DNA from: Actinomycetota bacterium
GTDB lineage: Bacteria > Actinomycetota > UBA4738 > HRBIN12
Reading direction: 5' to 3'
Assembly: GCA_040004125.1 (NCBI GenBank)
Contig: JBDUBL010000001.1
Location: 3,850-67,849, forward strand
Length of the DNA: 64,000 nt
Part shown: piece by piece, positions 10,241 through 46,915 of the stretch
Numbering within the stretch: position 1 is the stretch's first letter
Layout of the letters: each line of letters opens with the position of its first letter
Program-made: the position numbers and the translations under genes
Notes under the pieces: model-generated
The model's input: only the letters and a program-made list of their open reading frames with translations
Database searches by the model: none
What the model was told of the DNA's origin: nothing

Positions 10241-11103
10241 GCTGCTTCCTCGATCCGCTCGGCCGCACGCAGCTTGGCGGCGCGCGAGCGGGGGTTCGAC
10301 ACGCGCTCCCCGTCGGTGGCGACCAGGGGCTTCTTGGTGAGGATGTGCCAGGCGGGGTCGTCACGGAAGGCGCGCTTGACGATACCGTCCTCCAGCGAGT
10401 GATAGGAGATGACCACCACGCGGCCGCCGGGACCGAGGAGCCCAGCCGCGTGCGGCAGGGCCGCGGTGAGCTCCTCGAGCTCCCGGTTGACCGCGATGCG
10501 GAGCGCCTGGAACGTTCGGCGTGCGGGGTGGGGGCCCCCCGGACGCCGTCCCACGGCACCCACGACGACCCCGGCGAGTTCGTCGGTCGTAGTGATCGGT
10601 CGTTTGCGAACGATCGCGGCGGCGATCCGGCGCGACTGCCGTTCGTCGCCGAAGCGATAGATCAGGTCGGCGAGTTCCCGCTCCGACAACCCGTTGACGA
10701 GGTCGGTCGCCGACGGCTCATCCGCGCTCGCCCCCGCCATGCGCATGTCCAGGGGGGCGTCTTCCCGGAAGGAGAATCCGCGTGCGGGCTCGTCCAGCTG
10801 CATCGACGACACCCCCAGATCGAAGAGCACGCCGCCGGCGGGCCCGCCCACGTCGTCCTCATCGATCTGGGAAAAGCGCGCCTGCACGACGCGCACGCGG
10901 TGACCAAAGGCCGCGAGGTGCTCGGTGGCGATGGCCAGCGCCGAGGGATCGCGGTCCACGCCGACGACCGACAGGACGCCGGCCTCGAGCAAGGCGGCGG
11001 CGTGCCCGCCGGCGCCCAGCGTCATGTCCACCACGACATCGGCGCCGCCCAGTATCTGCACGACTTCCTCGACCATGACGGGTCGGTGCGGGGGCTCGGT
11101 CAC
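10237..11103 (-). CDS. rsmH: 16S rRNA (cytosine1402-N4)-methyltransferase RsmH (MraW)
   Basis: SAM methyltransferase motifs (DMTLGAGGH, FDLGVSSMQLD, YHSLED) conserved in MraW. Confidence 0.9.
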   Translation of the reverse strand: MTEPPHRPVMVEEVVQILGGADVVVDMTLGAGGHAAALLEAGVLSVVGVDRDPSALAIATEHLAAFGHRVRVVQARFSQIDEDDVGGPAGGVLFDLGVSSMQLDEPARGFSFREDAPLDMRMAGASADEPSATDLVNGLSERELADLIYRFGDERQSRRIAAAIVRKRPITTTDELAGVVVGAVGRRPGGPHPARRTFQALRIAVNRELEELTAALPHAAGLLGPGGRVVVISYHSLEDGIVKRAFRDDPAWHILTKKPLVATDGERVSNPRSRAAKLRAAERIEEAA

Positions 11104-11234
11104 CCGACGTGTCCGACGAACAGCCCGAACGCGATCGATGCCGCGAGCGTGAGCACGGTCATCCCGATCAGCGACAGGCTCTGTCGCACCTCCGCTCCCA
11201 GCTTGCTGGGCGTTTCCTGGACCCTGCTGGCCAT
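11100..11234 (-). CDS. small (44 aa) single-TM protein encoded between mraZ and rsmH
   Basis: Internal ATG of ORF 11100..11312. It is preceded by TGA-AGGAGG-caacgtg-ATG, a consensus Shine-Dalgarno with a 7-nt spacer directly after the mraZ stop. Its stop overlaps the rsmH start (ATGA). One hydrophobic helix. Confidence 0.5.
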   Translation of the reverse strand: MASRVQETPSKLGAEVRQSLSLIGMTVLTLAASIAFGLFVGHVG

Positions 11235-11247
11235 CACGTTGCCTCCT

Positions 11248-11676
11248 TCATCGGTGGGTCTCAAGCGTCCCTGCTTGGTAGGCGCCGGTGTAGGCGGCCT
11301 CGTAGCGCTCATAGGTGGCTCGGTCCCAGATCTCCATGCGTTCCCGCACGCCCAGCACGATCACGTCCTTGCCGATGCCGACCGCCTCCCGCAATCGGCC
11401 GGGCAACGTGAGCCGTCCCTGGCTGTCGAGCTTCAGTTCGTCGGAAGACCCGAAGAACAACCGCGCGTACGCGCGGCCCGGCGCGTCGGAAAGGGGGGAC
11501 GCCGAGACCTCGCCGGCGCGGCGCTCCCATTCGACCCTGGGGAAGGCGAAGAGACAGCCGTCTTGACCGATCGTGATCCAGGCCCCGTCGACGAAGGCCT
11601 CGCGGAACCTCGCCGACAACGACAGCCGCCCTTTCGGGTCGAGCTGGTAGCTGTGCGTGCCGAGCAGTTCGGACAC
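11248..11676 (-). CDS. mraZ: transcriptional regulator MraZ
   Basis: Tandem MraZ repeats with the LDxKGRL motif (LDPKGRLSL and KLDSQGRLTLP). GTG start at 11676 with AGGGGAGGA upstream. The longer ORF start is just that SD sequence being translated. Confidence 0.85.
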   Translation of the reverse strand: MSELLGTHSYQLDPKGRLSLSARFREAFVDGAWITIGQDGCLFAFPRVEWERRAGEVSASPLSDAPGRAYARLFFGSSDELKLDSQGRLTLPGRLREAVGIGKDVIVLGVRERMEIWDRATYERYEAAYTGAYQAGTLETHR

Positions 11677-11750
11677 GCGTCCTCCCCTTTCCTCCACTGT
11701 GGCCCCCGTTTATGCCACCTACACTCCACTTCGTCAACATGGTCTGCGCC

Positions 11751-11779
11751 CGAACTGTTGTTCGAACGGCCGTTTGAAC
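11751..11779. promoter_or_regulatory. Cheo/LexA-box-like palindrome cCGAAC-TGTT-GTTCGAAC-GGCC-GTTTGAAC in the mraZ promoter region. It also reads as three 12-bp-phased GTTCRRAC direct repeats on the minus strand
   Basis: Seen at ~11751-11779, about 75-100 nt upstream of the mraZ start. GAAC-N4-GTTC core with TCGAAC-like flanks. Confidence 0.35.
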
Positions 11780-11830
11780 ATGGCGAAGCGGCCGGAAAGC
11801 ACTGGAGAGGGGCGCCGCGAGGTGGTGGTG

Positions 11831-12313
11831 TTAGGTGAGGTAGGGCTCCCAGCCCGGTTCAACCAGGCCGAGGGTCAGGCGGAAGCCGTCGGATGGCGCG
11901 AAGGGCGACCGCGTGAGATGGAATCCGGCCTCCGCAGGGGTGCGATCCATCTTCTTGGCGTTGCAGCGCCGGCAGGCGGCCACGACGTTCTCCCAGACAT
12001 GGAGTCCGCCACGAGAACGAGGCACCACGTGGTCGAGGTTCTCCGCGGTCGCGCCGCAGTACTGGCACGCCCAGGCATCGCGCGCGAACACGGCCCGGCG
12101 CGTGAGCGGTGCGTGCTGTCGATACGGAACGCGCACGAATCGGCGCAGCCGTACGACCGAGGGCGCATCCAGGTGCAGCCGCTCGCTGCGGAAGATCGCG
12201 CCGTTGGACACAACGACGTCGGCTTTCTCCTTGAGCACGAGCACGACCGCCCGTCTCGCGGGAAGCACCGCGAGGGGCACCTCGGTTACGTTCAGGACGA
12301 GCGCCCTTCCCAT
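11831..12313 (-). CDS. HNH endonuclease family protein
   Basis: HNH motif: CQYCG...DHVVPRSRGG...NVVAACRRCNAKK. Confidence 0.7.
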   Translation of the reverse strand: MGRALVLNVTEVPLAVLPARRAVVLVLKEKADVVVSNGAIFRSERLHLDAPSVVRLRRFVRVPYRQHAPLTRRAVFARDAWACQYCGATAENLDHVVPRSRGGLHVWENVVAACRRCNAKKMDRTPAEAGFHLTRSPFAPSDGFRLTLGLVEPGWEPYLT

Positions 12314-18079: not shown

Positions 18080-19333
18080 CTATCGATTATAGGAAGGACC
18101 TGCGGAAGGTGGAACGAAAGATACGGATCGTTGTGGTTTGGGCTCGGGCGGTTGCACGCGTTCATCCCGACGATCTAACAGGGTGGCTTGTGTCGCAGCG
18201 CCTTTGCCGAACCGCCGCTCGATGCGATCCATCGCGCGTTCGACGTCGCCCCAACGCTCGCCACGGAGCAATGCGAGCTGTTCGGCGCCCGCTTGTTGCA
18301 GACCGGACCCCTGGACACCCAGCAAACGCACCCGGCGACCCGCTCCCGGGAGGGCCCGATAAAGTTCTGCGACCACGTGATAGAGGTCGGCGCCGATGTC
18401 GGTCGCGTCCGAGAGCGTGCGAGCCCGCGACAGGGTCGTGAAGTTCGCGAGACGTACCTTGAGGGTCACGGTGCGGGCTCGATAACCATCGTCGCGCAGC
18501 CGCGACGCCACGCGCCCCGACAGGTGCAACAGCTCGCGCAGGATCTCGCCCGTATCGTCTAGGTCACGCTCGAAGGTCTCCTCGTGCCCGACGGACTTCG
18601 GCGCCTCGTAGGGGATCACCGATCGATCGTCGATGCCGTGGGCCAGCTCGGTCAGATGTCGGGTCGAGACCTCACCGATCAGACGTTCCAGCACCGCCGG
18701 TGGTGTTCGCGCGAGGTCACCGATCGTCCGGATGGCCAAGCGCCCCAACAGTTCGGTGGTCTTCGCGCCGACACCCCACAGGCGTCCGACCGGCAACGGG
18801 TCTAGGAACGCGAGCGTCTGTTCTACCGGCACGTGCACGAGCGCGTCGGGTTTGCGGTGATCGGACGCGAGCTTCGCGACGAACTTCGTGGCCGCGACGC
18901 CCGCAGAGCATGTGACGCCGACCTCGGCCGCGACCTCGCCGCGGATCTTCTCGGCGATCTGCGACGGCTCGCCGAACAACGTCGTTGCGCCGCTCACATC
19001 GAGGAAAGCCTCATCGAGTGAGATCGGCTCGACCAACGGGGTGTGTGCGAGCAAGACCTCACGGAAGCGGTTGGAGTGCATCCGGTAGGCCTCGAAGTCC
19101 GGCGGCAGGAACACCGCGTCGGGACAAAGCCTCCGGGCGCGCACCGACGGCATCGCGGAGTGCACTCCGGCCCGGCGGGCTTCGTAGGAGGCGCTGGACA
19201 CGACGCCGCGCGGTCCCGTGCCCCCGACCACCACGGGCTTGCCGCGCAAGGAGGGGTCCTTCAGCACCTCGACCCCGGCGTAGAATGCGTCGAGATCGAC
19301 ATGCAGGATCGGCTCGAGCGGCCGGATCGTCAT
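18080..19333 (-). CDS. dinB: DNA polymerase IV (Y-family) DinB
   Basis: ILHVDLDAFYAGVE ... SIDEAFLD motifs. Start at the internal ATG (MTIRPLEP), 11 nt after the dnaE2 stop, so the two are co-transcribed. Confidence 0.9.
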   Translation of the reverse strand: MTIRPLEPILHVDLDAFYAGVEVLKDPSLRGKPVVVGGTGPRGVVSSASYEARRAGVHSAMPSVRARRLCPDAVFLPPDFEAYRMHSNRFREVLLAHTPLVEPISLDEAFLDVSGATTLFGEPSQIAEKIRGEVAAEVGVTCSAGVAATKFVAKLASDHRKPDALVHVPVEQTLAFLDPLPVGRLWGVGAKTTELLGRLAIRTIGDLARTPPAVLERLIGEVSTRHLTELAHGIDDRSVIPYEAPKSVGHEETFERDLDDTGEILRELLHLSGRVASRLRDDGYRARTVTLKVRLANFTTLSRARTLSDATDIGADLYHVVAELYRALPGAGRRVRLLGVQGSGLQQAGAEQLALLRGERWGDVERAMDRIERRFGKGAATQATLLDRRDERVQPPEPKPQRSVSFVPPSAGPSYNR

Positions 19334-19343
19334 CCCTGACACC

Positions 19344-22300
19344 CTAGCCTGCGGAGCCCGGGCTCGCGTGCCACAAGCGGCGCCCCGACGTGGCGGCCGT
19401 GGGCTGGATCGGGTCGCCCATCGCTTGGCGAAGGTGGCCATCGCGCCGGGCCTCCTGAAGGGCCACGAGATCCCAGACGTCTTCGGCGATCACGCTGACC
19501 CCTTGCTTGCCGGTGCGGCGTAGCTGTCCCCAGACCGCCATCGCGTAGGCATGGAACACCGTGCGCGCCACCTTGTGCTGCACCGACGGGAAAACGGTGA
19601 CCTCGATGGGCCCCGTGGCGTCATCGAGCGAGACGAAGATGATCCGTTGGCCGCTGCGCACCGCCGGAGTCTGCGAGGCGATCTTGACCCCGGCGACCAT
19701 GACCCACTCCCCTTGACGCTTGCGTGGCAGGTCGGCGGCCCGCGTGACGCCGAGATCCTGCAGGAGCGGCTCGTAGAAGCTGACGAGGTGACGCGTGGCG
19801 TCCATGCCGAAGACATCCAGCTCGGCGCGCACCACCTCGGCGTCGCTGTAGGCGGGAAAGAAGTGGCGCGGCGCGGCGGTCTCGGTGATGGTGAGCTGAT
19901 CGCCTTCGCGCGGCGCCGCGACCGTGATCGCCTCATACAGGTGGGAACGACGCCCCCCGGGCAGCGCATCGAACGCGCCGGCGTGCGCCAATGCCTCGGC
20001 AACCGGTCGCGACACCGTGGTGCGCCGCAGGAAATCCCCCACGTCGGCGAACGCACGCTCGGCACGTGCGATCAGGATCGAGCGGATGTCGGCCGCCGCG
20101 ATCCCGTGCACATCCTGCAGACCGATCCGGATCCCCAAGATGTCGTCGGCGGTCTCTTCCGTGACGTACTCGGGCTCGCTGCGATGGACATCGATCGGCA
20201 AGATCGGCACCCCGGCCCGCCGAGCGTCATCGAGCAGCAGACGCCGCGGATACATACCCGGATCATGGGTCAAGATCCCGGCCAGGAACTGCGCGCGGTA
20301 GTGGGTCTTGAGCCACGCCGAGCGGTAGGTGGGCACGGCGAACGCGGCCGCATGCGCCTTGCAGAAGCCGAAGCTCGCGAACTGCGAGACGTCGTCCCAG
20401 GTCTGTTCGGCCGCAGCCGGGTCGACGCCCCGGCCGATCGCGCGCGCCAGGAAGTCTGCGCGCAGCGCGGGCAGCATCGCGTCATCGTCCAGATGCCGGC
20501 GCACGTGATCGGCGTAGGTGAGGTCGTAACCGGCGAGCGCCGCGAGCGTGCGGATCACCTGTTCGTGAAACACGATCACCCCGAAGGTCTCCTGCAGCGC
20601 TGGACGCAGATCGGGGTGCGCGTAGGTCGGGCGTTCGAGCCCGGCGCGCCGAGCGATATAGGGGCGGATCATGTCGGACTTCACCGGGCCCGGGCGGAAC
20701 AACGAGATGTCGACGATCAGGTCCTCGAACCGTTCGGGCTGGAGCTTCTGGAGCAGCTCGCGCTGCCCCGGCGACTCGATCTGGAAACAACCGAGCGTGT
20801 CGGAGGCGCGGATCAGCTCGAACGTCGGCTCATCGTCGAGCGCGATCCGGTCGAGGTCGACCTTCTGGCCGGTGGTGCGGGCGATCTCGTCGATCGCGTG
20901 ACGCATCGACGAGAGCATGCGCACCCCCAGGATGTCGAGCTTGAGGTAGCCGAGCGCCTCGACGTCGTCCTTGTCGGCTTGGATCATGCGATGCCCGCCG
21001 GCGCTGCGCTCCAACGGCACCCGCTGCACCAGGTCGTGGCTGGCCAGCACGATGCCGCACGGGTGCAACGCGATGTGCCGCGGGAACCCGTCGAGCCGCT
21101 CGGCCACCCGGAAAAGCAGGTCGAGCTGGCGCATCGGCAGCTGGAGCCCCTGCAACTCGGGCAGGTGCTCGAGGCCCTCGCGCAGGTCGCGCGCCGAGAT
21201 GTGCGGGAAGGCCTTGGCGACGACACCGACCTCGACGTCGGGCAGACCCAGCGCCTTGCCGACCTCACGGACCGCCGAGCGCGCCCGATAGGTGTCGACC
21301 ATCGCGACGCACGCCGCCCGTTCATGGCCGTGTCGCGAAAGGATCATGTCGTAGACGTCCTCGCGGCGGGCGGACTCCACGTCGATGTCGACATCGGGCA
21401 GTCCGTCGCGCATCGGGTTCAAGAACCGCTCGAAAGAAAGATCGTGCCGAAGCGCATCGACGTCGGAGATGCCGGTCACCGAGCACACGAGCGATCCCGC
21501 GGCACTGCCGCGGCAGGCCGCGAAGATGCCCATCGTCTTGATGTCGGCCACGATGTCGGCCACGGTCAGGAAGTAGGCCGCGTACCCCATCTGCCGGATC
21601 ATCGAAAGTTCCAGATGCATGCGGGCGCGCAGACGTTCGTCGTCGCGCAGACCGCGTTCGTGGACCCCGCGCCAGCAACGCTCGGCGAGCACGGCGTCGG
21701 GGCTTCGGCCGCCCTGCGTCGGAAAATCGGGGAAATGCACCTGCGCGAGCCCCAGATCGAACGAGACGCGCTCGGTGATCGCCAGGGTTCGGTCGCAGAG
21801 CTGTGGCCGCTCGGCGAACAGCGCGCGCATCGCGTCGGACCCTTTGAGCCAGCCTTCGGCGTTGGTGCGCGTGATGTTGGACGACGCGATCGGCACGATG
21901 CGGCGCATGCACTCCAACGCGTCGGCCACGAACGCGTCCGCCTGCCGCAGGTAGCGCACGGGGTTGGTGGCGACCGCCGTAGCGTCGAGCCGGTCGGCGA
22001 AGCGCAGCATCGCGCGGATCTCGGTGTCGGAGCCGGCCTCGACGCGATGCTCGACGGCGATCACACAGCGCTCGGCGCCGAACGCCTCGCGGTAGGGCCC
22101 GGCCAGCGACGCGGCGGCATCGAGACGGCCGGCGGCCGCGAGACGTCCCGGGTGGGAGCGCGGTCCGAGCAGCACCGTCAGCCCGGCGGCGTGTGCGCAG
22201 ATCTGCTCGGTGGCGACCCAGGGATCGCCGCGCTCGCCGAGCAGGTGCGCATCGGTGAGCAACCGGCACATGTTCGCGTACCCGGTCGCATCTTCTGCCA

Positions 22301-22565
22301 GCAACACGACGTGCGCACTTTGTTGTCCCCGCCCACCCGGCGACGGCGCGCGCACGGTGAGCGACGCGCCCAGGATCGGGTGGATACCTTCGCGCTGACA
22401 CGCGGCGACGAACCGGACCGCGCCGTAGAGCCCGTCTCGATCGGTCAAGGCGACCGCCGGCATCTCCAGCTGTGCGGCGTGCGCCACGAGCTGCTCGGGC
22501 GTGAACGCGCCTTCCTTCAGCGAAAAACAGGAGCGGACATCGAGGTGGGCGAAGGAGGAGGCCAC
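19344..22565 (-). CDS. dnaE2: error-prone DNA polymerase III alpha, DnaE2 (ImuC)
   Basis: PHP domain (FAHLDVRSCFSLKEG), polIII alpha core and OB fold. Start set at the GTG at 22565 (VASSFAHLD), just after the stop of the small upstream ORF. Confidence 0.9.
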   Translation of the reverse strand: MASSFAHLDVRSCFSLKEGAFTPEQLVAHAAQLEMPAVALTDRDGLYGAVRFVAACQREGIHPILGASLTVRAPSPGGRGQQSAHVVLLAEDATGYANMCRLLTDAHLLGERGDPWVATEQICAHAAGLTVLLGPRSHPGRLAAAGRLDAAASLAGPYREAFGAERCVIAVEHRVEAGSDTEIRAMLRFADRLDATAVATNPVRYLRQADAFVADALECMRRIVPIASSNITRTNAEGWLKGSDAMRALFAERPQLCDRTLAITERVSFDLGLAQVHFPDFPTQGGRSPDAVLAERCWRGVHERGLRDDERLRARMHLELSMIRQMGYAAYFLTVADIVADIKTMGIFAACRGSAAGSLVCSVTGISDVDALRHDLSFERFLNPMRDGLPDVDIDVESARREDVYDMILSRHGHERAACVAMVDTYRARSAVREVGKALGLPDVEVGVVAKAFPHISARDLREGLEHLPELQGLQLPMRQLDLLFRVAERLDGFPRHIALHPCGIVLASHDLVQRVPLERSAGGHRMIQADKDDVEALGYLKLDILGVRMLSSMRHAIDEIARTTGQKVDLDRIALDDEPTFELIRASDTLGCFQIESPGQRELLQKLQPERFEDLIVDISLFRPGPVKSDMIRPYIARRAGLERPTYAHPDLRPALQETFGVIVFHEQVIRTLAALAGYDLTYADHVRRHLDDDAMLPALRADFLARAIGRGVDPAAAEQTWDDVSQFASFGFCKAHAAAFAVPTYRSAWLKTHYRAQFLAGILTHDPGMYPRRLLLDDARRAGVPILPIDVHRSEPEYVTEETADDILGIRIGLQDVHGIAAADIRSILIARAERAFADVGDFLRRTTVSRPVAEALAHAGAFDALPGGRRSHLYEAITVAAPREGDQLTITETAAPRHFFPAYSDAEVVRAELDVFGMDATRHLVSFYEPLLQDLGVTRAADLPRKRQGEWVMVAGVKIASQTPAVRSGQRIIFVSLDDATGPIEVTVFPSVQHKVARTVFHAYAMAVWGQLRRTGKQGVSVIAEDVWDLVALQEARRDGHLRQAMGDPIQPTAATSGRRLWHASPGSAG

Positions 22566-22575
22566 GGCGCCCGCC

Positions 22576-22821
22576 TTAGTCCCACAAGCGTTCCATGTGC
22601 CACAGATCCCGCTGCCGATCGAAGTAGAGGTCCCACACCGCGCCGCCGCGGGCCTCGACACGCCAGTACTCGCGGTCGCGCCCGTCGGCCCACCAGCGCC
22701 CCTCGATCCTCCACTTCCCGATCACGTCGGCGACCTCGTATCGGTGCCCCCGCCATTCGAACGCAGCCGGTAACCCGGCGTCGCGTTCGACCCGAACCTC
22801 CTCATCGAAGCGCTTCGTCAT
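22576..22821 (-). CDS. small (81 aa) Trp/Arg-rich protein, first gene of the SOS-regulated dnaE2-dinB operon
   Basis: C-terminal part of ORF 22576..23631 from the internal ATG (MTKRFDEEVRVERDAGLPAAFEWRGHRYEV...GKWRIEGRWW...WDLYFDRQRDLWHMERLWD). Its stop is 10 nt before the dnaE2 GTG. A LexA box lies ~35 nt upstream. Confidence 0.5.
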   Translation of the reverse strand: MTKRFDEEVRVERDAGLPAAFEWRGHRYEVADVIGKWRIEGRWWADGRDREYWRVEARGGAVWDLYFDRQRDLWHMERLWD

Positions 22822-22855
22822 CCCCGGTCGTACCTCGCTCCTCACCCCTTCGGAA

Positions 22856-22871
22856 TCGAACGTATGTTCGA
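22856..22871. promoter_or_regulatory. LexA (SOS/Cheo) box TCGAACGTATGTTCGA in the divergent intergenic region, overlapping the DUF402 start codon
   Basis: Perfect match to the actinobacterial TCGAAC-N4-GTTCGA consensus. It sits ~35 nt upstream of the small-ORF/dnaE2/dinB operon. Confidence 0.7.
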
Positions 22872-23607
22872 GGGGAGGATGAAAGTACTCCTCAGCTGTG
22901 ACATCCGTCAAGACCGTCATCGAAGCTCTTCGGGCGGCGGTAGGCTCGATGCCATGGGGGGAACACAACACGGCGCGGGCGAGGTCGAGGGCCTCGCGCC
23001 GTTCGTCCCCGGCGACCCGGTCGCGATCCGCGAGATCTGGAACGGCCGCGTCTGGTATGCCCGCCCGGCAACGGTCGTGCGCGACGAGCCGAACCTGACG
23101 ATGCTGCTCGTACCGCCGCATGTGCGTGCGAAGGAACCGGTTGACGCGACGGGCGAACCTCTCCGGATCCCGACGACGGACTGGGGCTTCCGCGACACCG
23201 ATCGGGGCGACACGTGGAACCTCTCCTTCGCCTTTCCCGACACCCCGTACTCGGTGATCATCGGGTTCGAGGCCTCCGGCACGCTGCGCGAGTACTACAT
23301 CAACCTGCAGACGCCGCTCGTGCGCTCCCCCGCCGGCTTCGACACCGTCGAGCACCTGCTGGACGTCACGATCCCACCCGATCGCAGCACCTGGGCGTGG
23401 AAGGACGAAGATGAGCTTGCCGAGGCCGTCGAGCTCGGCTTGTTCACCGAAGAAGACACCGCCTGGTTCCGCTACTGGGGCGAGCGCGCGGTCGAGCATG
23501 TGTTGCTCCGGGAGCCGCCCTTCGACGAGGATTGGATGGACTGGCGACCCGACCCCGCATGGCCCGAACCGGTCCTGCCCACCAACTGGGATCTGGTCCC
23601 GGTCTGA
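22864..23607 (+). CDS. DUF402 domain protein (FomD-like nucleotide hydrolase family)
   Basis: YYINLQTP...FDTVEHLLDVTI...DEDELAEAVELGLFTEEDTAW resembles DUF402. Preferred over the antisense N-terminal extension of ORF 22576..23631. Confidence 0.6.
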   Translation: MFEGRMKVLLSCDIRQDRHRSSSGGGRLDAMGGTQHGAGEVEGLAPFVPGDPVAIREIWNGRVWYARPATVVRDEPNLTMLLVPPHVRAKEPVDATGEPLRIPTTDWGFRDTDRGDTWNLSFAFPDTPYSVIIGFEASGTLREYYINLQTPLVRSPAGFDTVEHLLDVTIPPDRSTWAWKDEDELAEAVELGLFTEEDTAWFRYWGERAVEHVLLREPPFDEDWMDWRPDPAWPEPVLPTNWDLVPV

Positions 23608-24664: not shown

Positions 24665-27132
<2,468 letters not shown>

Positions 27133-30013: not shown

Positions 30014-30757
30014 TCAGCCTGGCTTCGGCCGAACGTATGAACGTTGGAGGTTCTTGGCCACGGTCCGCTCGCGGCGGAACTTCTTCCAGTCGCTGCTCTT
30101 CGTGCTGAGGGTCACGTCGGTGCCGATCTGGATCGCCCCGACGGCGAGCAGCGCCCACGCGGACCACATGGGCGCGTTCGTGCTGGGCCACAACGCCAAC
30201 GCGACGAACGGGGCAAGCTTCGTCGCGATCGCGCCGCTGGCATGGAACCACGCCCGCATCGACGGCTCAGCCTTCAGATAGGTGGCGTAGTCGGTCTTGA
30301 TCCCGGGTCGAGGGGGCGGGGGCCCGCCGAGGAAGGCGTCGGTGTAGCGGATGCCAGCGAGCCATCCCACGAACGCGTGGGCCGGCAGGTGCCACCCGAT
30401 CGACCATGCAACCCCGGCGCCGAGGAGGGCGAGTCCGGCCCACGCATCGGTCCAGGTCGCGGCCAAGGCAACGCCGACGACGCCGGCGGCCGACAGCACG
30501 AGCATCCCCACGACGCCGATCCACGGTCGAACACGGGTTCGGACGCCGGCGCGGAATGCGGCTGTGTCGATCCGCCCTGCCTGGTCGGCATGGCGCACGA
30601 TCGCCGCCCGATCGCGCTTGATCGCTCCGATGACCTTCCAGAAGCCGAGGGACCGCAGATCCCGGTCGCCGGCGGCCACCGCGGCCTCGATCCGTTCCAG
30701 GTCCACGCCCATCTGGGCGATCGCCGCCTGGTCGGGAGTTGGTCGCAGCGGTTCCAC
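30014..30757 (-). CDS. hypothetical integral membrane protein
   Basis: ORF with several TM helices. No recognisable family. Confidence 0.45.
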   Translation of the reverse strand: MEPLRPTPDQAAIAQMGVDLERIEAAVAAGDRDLRSLGFWKVIGAIKRDRAAIVRHADQAGRIDTAAFRAGVRTRVRPWIGVVGMLVLSAAGVVGVALAATWTDAWAGLALLGAGVAWSIGWHLPAHAFVGWLAGIRYTDAFLGGPPPPRPGIKTDYATYLKAEPSMRAWFHASGAIATKLAPFVALALWPSTNAPMWSAWALLAVGAIQIGTDVTLSTKSSDWKKFRRERTVAKNLQRSYVRPKPG

Positions 30758-30835: not shown

Positions 30836-32722
<1,887 letters not shown>

Positions 32723-46066: not shown

Positions 46067-46915
46067 ATGCACGAGCCGACCCCGATCCCCATCCACGAGC
46101 TCCCGACGGACCCCGATCCGTCGGGAGAGGCGCCCGGCACGGCGGTCCCGCCCGGGGTCGAACAGGCGATCGACGTCCTGATCGGCCTCGTCACGCTGGC
46201 CACGAACGCCGCCGCCTCGATCCTGCGTGGTGACGAGGAGCCGGGCGCCGGGGCTGAGGGCGCCACCCTTGTGACCGGTGCGGCCGCCGGGTTCCTGATC
46301 GAAGGCCTGCGCGCCGCCGGCGCGGTGCTCACCGCATTCGAGCGCACCCTCGTCGCGCCGGCCACCACCGTGGCGGGTGCCGCCGCCGAGCGCCCCGAGA
46401 TCCGCGAGCTCCTGGAGCACTGGCAGGCTTCGTGGGAGGAACAGCGCGATCAGAGCGAGCCCGTCGCGGCCGACACCCTGCGTCGCGGGATCCGCCGAGG
46501 CGCGGACGCTCTCATGGACCAGCTCGATCTGACCCAGCTGGTGATCGATCACCTCGACATCCAACGGGTCGCCGAGCAGATCGACATCGACGCCCTCGTC
46601 GGAGGTCTCGACATCGATCGGCTGATCGATCGCATGGACATGGACCGTTTGGCATCGCGGATCGACATCGACGCGCTCGTTGCCCGGCTCGACGTCGAGG
46701 CCGTTGTCGACAACCTCGACGTTGCGGCGATCGCCGCCGACGTGATCGATGAGCTCGACTTGCCACAGCTGATCCGAGATGCGACCGCCGACATCACCTC
46801 CGACGGCGTGCGCACCGCGCGTCTTCGTGGGGTCGGGGCCGATCGCGCGCTCCGGCGCGCGGTCGATCGCATCCTGGCCCGGTCCGAGGCGACGGACACC
46901 GGGGAGCGCCGATGA
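46067..46915 (+). CDS. protein with eight or more tandem nonapeptide repeats (hD-h-D-x-L-h-x-x, e.g. LDIDRLIDR / MDMDRLASR / IDIDALVAR)
   Basis: Internal ATG (MHEPTPIPI). N-terminal Ala/Gly-rich region, then the repeat array, then an Arg-rich tail. ATGA overlap with the downstream RDD gene. Confidence 0.55.
   Translation: MHEPTPIPIHELPTDPDPSGEAPGTAVPPGVEQAIDVLIGLVTLATNAAASILRGDEEPGAGAEGATLVTGAAAGFLIEGLRAAGAVLTAFERTLVAPATTVAGAAAERPEIRELLEHWQASWEEQRDQSEPVAADTLRRGIRRGADALMDQLDLTQLVIDHLDIQRVAEQIDIDALVGGLDIDRLIDRMDMDRLASRIDIDALVARLDVEAVVDNLDVAAIAADVIDELDLPQLIRDATADITSDGVRTARLRGVGADRALRRAVDRILARSEATDTGERR
46524..46770. repeat. ~9 x 27-bp imperfect in-frame tandem repeats (consensus ctcgacatcgacgcgctcgtcgcccgg) encoding the nonapeptide array
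   Basis: Read from the sequence at 46524-46770. Confidence 0.65.

Follow-up and report, generated by a model that had tools for sequence, protein, structure and literature searches.

A conserved SOS-box-like palindrome upstream of mraZ as a probable LexA operator in soil Actinomycetes

We identified a 16-bp palindrome upstream of mraZ, at positions 11750-11765 of a 64-kb stretch of actinobacterial DNA (hereafter the window), which is probably a LexA operator acting on the mraZ promoter (PmraZ). A LexA operator was one of two readings offered in the original prediction, and it is supported computationally by a match to the actinobacterial SOS box, by a perfect SOS box preceding the dnaE2 operon of the same genome, and by the footprint of the palindrome across 80 mraZ promoters. 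In the best reading of these sequences, PmraZ would be controlled both by LexA, bound upstream, and by MraZ, repressing its own gene from the core promoter.

Results

The mraZ locus

The mraZ open reading frame as listed starts at 11697, and its likelier start is a GTG codon at 11676 on the minus strand. A strong Shine-Dalgarno sequence, GGAGGAAAGGGGAGGA, lies just before this GTG, and mraZ homologues encode proteins of 142 aa that start at the equivalent codon, for which reasons the GTG at 11676 is almost certainly the true start. The DXXXR DNA-binding motifs of MraZ (D13..R17 and D84..R88) are invariant in the MraZ proteins of the clade. On the same strand, 3' of mraZ, lie a 44-aa open reading frame, rsmH, an ftsL-like gene, a PBP gene, murE, murF and ftsW. 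An HNH endonuclease gene upstream of mraZ, also on the minus strand, ends at 11831, so that with the revised mraZ start the intergenic region spans 11677-11830. Its elements follow one another on the mraZ strand in the order GTTCAAAC GGCC GTTCGAAC AACA GTTCGGGC GCAGACCATG TTGACG AA GTGGAG TGTAG GTGGCA TAAAC GGGGGC CACA GTGGAG GAAAGGGGAGGACGC GTG. The features discussed below are as follows.

11248-11676, minus strand: mraZ; Pfam MraZ domain in the homologues, DXXXR motifs invariant.
11692-11729, minus strand: candidate MraZ operator of four GTGG boxes (GTGGAG at 11729-11724, GTGGCA at 11718-11713, GGGGGC at 11707-11702 and GTGGAG at 11697-11692).
11709-11717, minus strand: putative extended -10 element, TGG-CATAAA, 17 bp after the -35; GTGG[C/G]ATAA is invariant in relatives.
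11732-11737, minus strand: putative -35 hexamer, TTGACG; TTGAC is fixed in the 80 aligned promoters, and the sixth base is C in three loci that lack the box.
11779-11748, minus strand: triple repeat GTTCAAAC-GGCC-GTTCGAAC-AACA-GTTCGGGC, with a 12-bp period, the sum of two overlapping palindromes.
11750-11765: proximal SOS-box-like palindrome, candidate LexA operator; TCGAAC-AACA-GTTCGG on the mraZ strand, CCGAAC-TGTT-GTTCGA on the plus strand.
11762-11777: distal degenerate box TCGAACGGCCGTTTGA; TCAAAC-GGCC-GTTCGA on the mraZ strand, specific to the window.
22856-22871: perfect SOS box TCGAACGTATGTTCGA, 35 bp upstream of a minus-strand DUF6504-dnaE2-Y-family polymerase operon (22821 down to 18083).

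Two overlapping palindromes upstream of mraZ

The plus strand at 11750-11780 reads CCGAAC-TGTT-GTTCGAAC-GGCC-GTTTGAAC, as had been reported. The flagged element (11748-11779) lies 72-103 nt upstream of the GTG at 11676, in agreement with the 75-100 nt first given. The proximal palindrome (11750-11765) carries a single mismatch to TCGAAC-N4-GTTCGA, at an outer position, and retains an exact GAAC/GTTC core, bearing out the 15/16 match that had been claimed; the midpoint of the palindrome is near -55.5, counted from the putative transcription start. The second, degenerate half-site of the original prediction likewise proved to be present, in the form of a distal box (11762-11777) with one mismatch to the same motif, which falls within the core (AAAC instead of GAAC). 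The distal box shares 4 bp with the proximal one, and in the window the overlapping inverted repeats combine into a near-perfect palindrome of 22 bp (11759-11780).

The same region had also been described as three GTTCRRAC direct repeats. Three units with a 12-bp period do occur, but the consensus is GTTCRRRC rather than GTTCRRAC, because the third unit is GTTCGGGC, and the distal unit is not conserved. Each GTTCRRRC unit is nearly self-complementary (GTTC/GAAC). Thus, the apparent direct repeats are two overlapping inverted repeats read another way.

Counts of these patterns in the 64-kb window exceed those expected by chance. A scan for TCGAAC-N4-GTTCGA with at most one mismatch returned 6 matches where 0.27 would be expected; the exact CGAAC-N4-GTTCG core was found three times (0.19 expected) and the three-unit pattern once (0 expected). 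Further one-mismatch SOS-like sites in the window are found at 26795, 30527 and 46158; the first two lie inside genes, and the mismatch falls in the core at 26795 and at 46158.

A canonical SOS box at the dnaE2 operon

The dnaE2 mutagenesis operon is a classical LexA target. In the window, the sequence upstream of this operon, TCGAACGTATGTTCGA at 22856-22871, is the only perfect TCGAAC-N4-GTTCGA in the 64 kb, and lies 11 kb from the mraZ box. We found 38 related metagenomic dnaE2 loci and scanned 36 of these; TCGAAC-ATAY-GTTCGA (with at most one mismatch) was identified at the equivalent place in 21, indicating that this clade uses the canonical SOS box. The mycobacterial LexA consensus, reportedly defined by Davis and colleagues in 2002, is TCGAAC-N4-GTTCGA. 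The LexA motif recovered by ChIP-seq in Streptomyces venezuelae is tCGAAC-N4-GNNCGa (PMC9380542). Searches for lexA and recA by tblastn, using approximate Mycobacterium tuberculosis queries, returned no match in the window or in any of the 124 loci collected.

Conservation of the proximal palindrome across 80 promoters

We gathered mraZ loci from 80 MAG contigs (species-representative genomes), all from uncultured soil Actinomycetes/Actinomycetota, with MraZ proteins 65-95% identical to that of the window. Two MAGs have two loci each, and one incomplete locus was left out; the 79 relative loci, from 78 MAGs, together with the window gave 80 promoters. These were aligned on the near-invariant TTGACG hexamer. 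An exact GAAC-N4-GTTC was found no more than 60 bp upstream of TTGACG in 66 of the 80 promoters, with 67 matches in total, against a background of only 7 matches in the remaining ~406 kb of the same loci.

We identified 53 promoters, here termed group A, that have the same arrangement as the window. Their matrix reads Y-CGAAC-A-N-C-A-GTTCG-G, with C before GAAC in 53/53 and G after GTTC in 52/53 promoters. The spacer, A-N-C-A, is non-palindromic, its C being present in 51/53 and its A in 53/53. Information content in group A falls to approximately zero directly upstream of the palindrome, where the distal GTTCAAAC-GGCC of the window sits. This position-specific conservation next to a diverged flank implies that the proximal palindrome is under selection, and on this comparative evidence the palindrome at 11750-11765 is the selected part of the flagged element.

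None of the 79 relatives has the distal unit (11772-11779), not even loci L007-L009, whose MraZ proteins are 93-95% identical to that of the window. Only the last two repeat units are conserved in relatives, and these together constitute an inverted repeat. Comparison with the mraZ promoters of relatives therefore has a divided outcome for the original prediction: the proximal palindrome is kept in 66 of 80 promoters, but the triple repeat is present in none of the 79 relatives. We conclude that the triple repeat is confined to this genome, and that its distal copy is at most a young, weak second box. The triple direct repeat was accordingly rejected as a functional unit, being unique in the window but without conservation in relatives.

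The position of the box relative to the core promoter falls into two classes. In the window, 14 bp separate the candidate LexA core from the putative -35 downstream of it; this is the group A gap, and it was counted in 52 loci. In 12 loci belonging to a derived clade, here termed group B, the gap is 3 bp. The group B consensus is CCGAAC-ACAT-GTTCAC, with its centre at about -44.5. On a crude neighbour-joining tree of mraZ-rsmH DNA, group A is widespread and group B is confined to derived branches; the group A arrangement is probably ancestral. The shift from A to B amounts to 11 bp, or one helical turn, so that the box was kept and its helix face preserved. The tree and alignment additionally show at least five independent losses of the box, by decay and without compensatory changes. 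In the box-less loci, a T-rich, UP-element-like tract (CCTTTC, CATTTTC and similar) occupies the position of the box.

The same data bear on whether the palindrome might have no regulatory function, having arisen by chance or serving as a hairpin terminator or attenuator of the upstream HNH gene. A 6-bp stem with a 4-nt loop could form, and the palindrome does lie downstream of the HNH stop codon (11831). Neither chance nor a hairpin would account for conservation that is specific in both position and sequence in 66 of 80 promoters with unalignable flanks. No T-run follows and no terminator was called, and the losses of the box show decay rather than compensatory pairs. The fold energy of the palindrome region was no better than that of shuffled sequences (z = -0.31), and an Rfam search of the window returned no RNA family. 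An absence of regulatory function is, on this evidence, very improbable, and the reading of the palindrome as an RNA element, hairpin or terminator was rejected on the empty Rfam search, the fold z of -0.31 and the lack of a terminator call. We also rejected an ECF-sigma promoter reading of CGAACA...GTT, for which the spacing is unfit and unconserved.

The core promoter and a candidate MraZ operator

We infer that TTGACG and TGG-CATAAA are the -35 and extended -10 elements of the mraZ promoter, which would place the transcription start near 11702. A strict sigma-70 promoter scan gave no match at the mraZ promoter, because the conserved -10, [C/G]ATAA[A/C/G], has no T at position 6.

Four GTGG boxes at 11692-11729, near the palindrome, form a candidate MraZ operator. 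Their start-to-start spacing is 11, 11 and 10 bp, and they overlap the promoter spacer, the putative -10, the transcription start and the 5' UTR. The third box, GGGGGC in the window, is GTGG in most relatives. This four-box pattern is unique in the window, where 0 occurrences are expected, and near-invariant in the 80 loci. MraZ operators consist of GTG(G/T) direct repeats with approximately 6 nt between them, present in three copies in most bacteria and in four in Mycoplasma genitalium (PMC12957436). In Bacillus subtilis the MraZ boxes are three copies of GTGG[A/T]G-N4 (bioRxiv 10.1101/2022.02.09.479790).

These boxes bear directly on the second reading in the original prediction, in which the three 12-bp-phased GTTCRRRC units would themselves be the MraZ operator. 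It was right in expecting phased direct repeats of the MraZ type in this promoter, but these are the GTGG boxes at 11692-11729 and not the flagged GTTCRRAC repeats. MraZ binds phased direct repeats in its own promoter, and the three GTTCRRRC units do have a regular 12-bp period and are unique in the window. Against their being the MraZ operator, the distal unit is missing in all relatives, the two conserved units make an inverted repeat, and four near-invariant GTGG boxes lie 20-55 bp downstream. The published boxes are moreover GTG(G/T) with a period of approximately 10 bp, not 12 (PMC12957436; bioRxiv 10.1101/2022.02.09.479790). The DNA-contact residues of MraZ are unchanged, and a changed specificity is therefore not expected. 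We give hardly any credence to an MraZ operator built of GTTCRRRC units.

Could another regulator bind the palindrome?

Some features of the palindrome would suit a different dimeric regulator of the dcw promoter, whose half-sites resemble the SOS box by chance and which may activate from -55 or -44. The palindrome lies upstream of the -35, and its helical phase is kept between the two positional classes 11 bp apart. The C-A of the spacer is invariant and non-palindromic, unlike the dnaE2 boxes, and the T-rich UP-element-like tract of box-less relatives looks as if it substituted for a positive input. In addition, mraZ is not named in the searchable S. venezuelae LexA data (PMC9380542). The ten high-information positions of the LexA site (CGAAC/GTTCG) are, however, essentially invariant at the mraZ palindrome, the group B spacer ACAT is canonical for LexA, and the same genome uses the motif at dnaE2. 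No other regulator of Actinobacteria is known to us to bind a GAAC-N4-GTTC site. We accordingly regard another regulator as unlikely, and retain it as an alternative on account of the upstream position, the invariant C-A spacer and the lack of a named mraZ in the Streptomyces LexA data.

To our knowledge, neither mraZ nor the dcw cluster is among the LexA targets of Mycobacterium or Corynebacterium. A link between LexA and mraZ or the dcw cluster was not found in the text of the Streptomyces DAP-seq atlas. The text and supplementary tables of the S. venezuelae LexA ChIP-seq and RNA-seq study, as far as these are searchable, do not name mraZ, which is a weak check given that most genes there are listed by locus tag (PMC9380542).

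Discussion

A possible route from DNA damage to mraZ

With the palindrome taken as a LexA operator, LexA binding, the sign of regulation, the promoter assignment and the physiological effect are all deduced from sequence, and the following scheme is to be read as a prediction. In undamaged cells, a LexA dimer on the box would lower initiation at PmraZ, leaving less room for sigma region 4 or the C-terminal domains of alpha. Upon DNA damage, RecA-stimulated self-cleavage of LexA would free the promoter, and transcription of mraZ and of some downstream dcw genes would go up. MraZ would then occupy the four GTGG boxes (11692-11729), and since MraZ-bound boxes would cover the -10 and the transcription start, the resulting pulse of MraZ would be self-limiting. 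Excess MraZ blocks division in Escherichia coli, B. subtilis and Mycoplasma, and such a pulse could thus plausibly delay division during repair. B. subtilis cells that overproduce MraZ show repression of the mra operon and inhibited division (bioRxiv 10.1101/2022.02.09.479790).

The original prediction had gone further, proposing that a LexA operator at this place would give SOS-coupled division arrest without a dedicated inhibitor. This does not follow directly. LexA is normally a repressor, and DNA damage would therefore raise, not lower, mraZ transcription. Arrest would then need excess MraZ, unless LexA instead activates the promoter from its site upstream of the -35. Simple repressors seldom bind in that position, which would better suit an activator. 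We consider it a tentative and rather doubtful possibility that SOS is wired directly into this division and cell-wall promoter, in one of two versions. In version (a), MraZ would itself be the SOS division inhibitor, with LexA cleavage leading to a self-limiting MraZ pulse and hence to repression of the dcw genes. In version (b), LexA bound in helical phase upstream of the -35 would activate PmraZ, and its cleavage would shut off dcw transcription with no inhibitor protein involved. Version (b) would fit the upstream, phase-preserved position and the T-rich UP-like tract where the box has been lost. In Streptomyces mobaraensis, LexA is reported to bind genes for division and morphology and to raise their expression (PMC11157053).

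A LexA box preserved at this promoter over long evolutionary times would turn MraZ or the dcw promoter into a direct SOS effector in widespread soil actinomycetes, and MraZ, the conserved regulator that heads the dcw cluster, would gain a defined signal. Version (a), if true, would explain division arrest in actinomycetes without homologues of ChiZ, DivS or SulA. The study of the Streptomyces LexA regulon describes the mechanism of SOS division arrest in this genus as still unidentified (PMC9380542). The promoters additionally provide a natural series in operator evolution, from a box at -55, through a box at -44, to loss of the box and its replacement by a T-rich tract.

Comparison with known systems

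The candidate operator resembles the actinobacterial and Gram-positive LexA operator (Cheo-type GAAC-N4-GTTC) in being a 16-bp imperfect palindrome with a CGAAC/GTTCG core, present as a single copy in its promoter. It differs in lying upstream of the -35 and not over the -35, -10 or +1, and in its outer bases, which are Y and G and not T and A. Its non-palindromic A-N-C-A spacer also departs from the ATAY of the dnaE2 boxes, which hints at an extra or different constraint on the mraZ spacer.

Similarly, the four GTGG boxes share with the MraZ boxes of E. coli, B. subtilis (GTGG[A/T]G-N4, three copies) and Mycoplasma (AAAGTG[T/G]-N3, four copies) the placement of GTGG direct repeats over the mraZ core promoter, which is common to every species studied, and the MraZ of this clade keeps its DXXXR motifs. 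The boxes differ in numbering four at a spacing of 11/11/10 bp, instead of three at 10 bp.

SOS division arrest is known only through lineage-specific inhibitors, namely SulA, YneA, SosA, SidA, ChiZ and DivS. Among these, ChiZ (Rv2719c) of M. tuberculosis and DivS of Corynebacterium glutamicum are LexA-controlled division inhibitors (PMC5014011). As with ChiZ and DivS, SOS would here be coupled to division through a LexA-repressed gene; in contrast to them, the part of effector would fall to MraZ, the conserved regulator of the dcw genes, or to the dcw promoter, and not to a small lineage-specific inhibitor encoded beside lexA.

The closest precedent is a LexA site upstream of a mraZ homologue (COG2001) in the human gut metagenome, for which EMSA showed binding of B. 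subtilis LexA (Cornish et al. 2014, PMC3998124). The link between LexA and mraZ is therefore not in itself new. Both cases are SOS boxes in front of mraZ that were found by comparative or metagenomic analysis. The gut case comes from gut bacteria and was assayed by EMSA with a Firmicutes-type LexA, whereas the present one is a predicted site in a large clade of soil Actinomycetes with 69% G+C, and has been traced over 80 promoters with gains, shifts and losses. What these sequences would add is a new lineage and a new target for the SOS box, together with a well-resolved evolutionary series.

Spacer of the mraZ box and boxes elsewhere in the window

In group A promoters, which share the window's arrangement (box core 14 bp from the inferred -35), the spacer of the SOS-like box upstream of mraZ reads A-N-C-A among the related metagenomic loci L007-L086, with C in 51/53 and A in 53/53. 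The invariant C and A are non-palindromic, and in related loci the spacer of the dnaE2 box is ATAY instead. Together, these patterns point to a constraint on top of simple LexA half-site recognition.

The dnaE2 operon of the window, and a third exact CGAAC-N4-GTTCG match, lie in the following features:

18083-22871, minus strand: DUF6504-dnaE2-Y-family polymerase operon with its box
22864-23604, plus strand: DUF402 gene, divergent from the operon
30017-30757, minus strand: 247-aa ORF carrying CGAAC-N4-GTTCG
30528-30541: third exact match, inside this ORF

A perfect SOS box (TCGAACGTATGTTCGA, 22856-22871) separates the operon from the DUF402 gene. In related metagenomic loci the box lies ~300 bp upstream of dnaE2 where DUF6504 is present, and ~40 bp upstream where it is absent. 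The operon opens with DUF6504 and closes with the Y-family polymerase, an order that differs from the usual imuA-imuB-dnaE2 cassette. The 247-aa ORF, which has no Pfam match, adjoins the gene for a PknB-like PASTA Ser/Thr kinase (30836-32719); LexA sites within genes are known in Streptomyces from ChIP-seq.

Variation at the mraZ promoter

In relatives that lack the box, whose genomes are about 70% G+C, a T-rich tract (CCTTTC, CATTTTC, CTTTTTTC) occupies the same place:

~8-25 bp upstream of the TTGACG hexamer: T-rich tract, in relative loci L029, L035, L038, L044, L045, L048, L049, L063, L074, L078, L080 and L081

This tract is possibly an UP-like element, or a site for another factor, substituting for the box. 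In this genome only, the distal copy creates a 22-bp near-perfect palindrome (TGTTCGAACGG/CCGTTTGAACA, 11759-11780), which may represent a young second box or else a chance event; no sequence from the same species was found for comparison of this palindrome.

Downstream and start-proximal elements

11100-11234, minus strand: 44-aa ORF between mraZ and rsmH, overlapping the rsmH start
11692-11729, minus strand: four GTGG boxes, 11/11/10-bp spacing, mraZ promoter

The 44-aa ORF, without a Pfam family, is predicted to contain one hydrophobic helix (MASRVQETPSKLGAEVRQSLSLIGMTVLTLAASIAFGLFVGHVG), and is called as a gene in 6/6 of the closest relative contigs (L001-L006, 3445-3579). The GTGG boxes overlap the inferred -10 and transcription start of mraZ, and are near-invariant across the 80 aligned promoters. 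MraZ operators described elsewhere mostly contain three boxes at 10-bp spacing, with four so far in Mycoplasma (PMC12957436).
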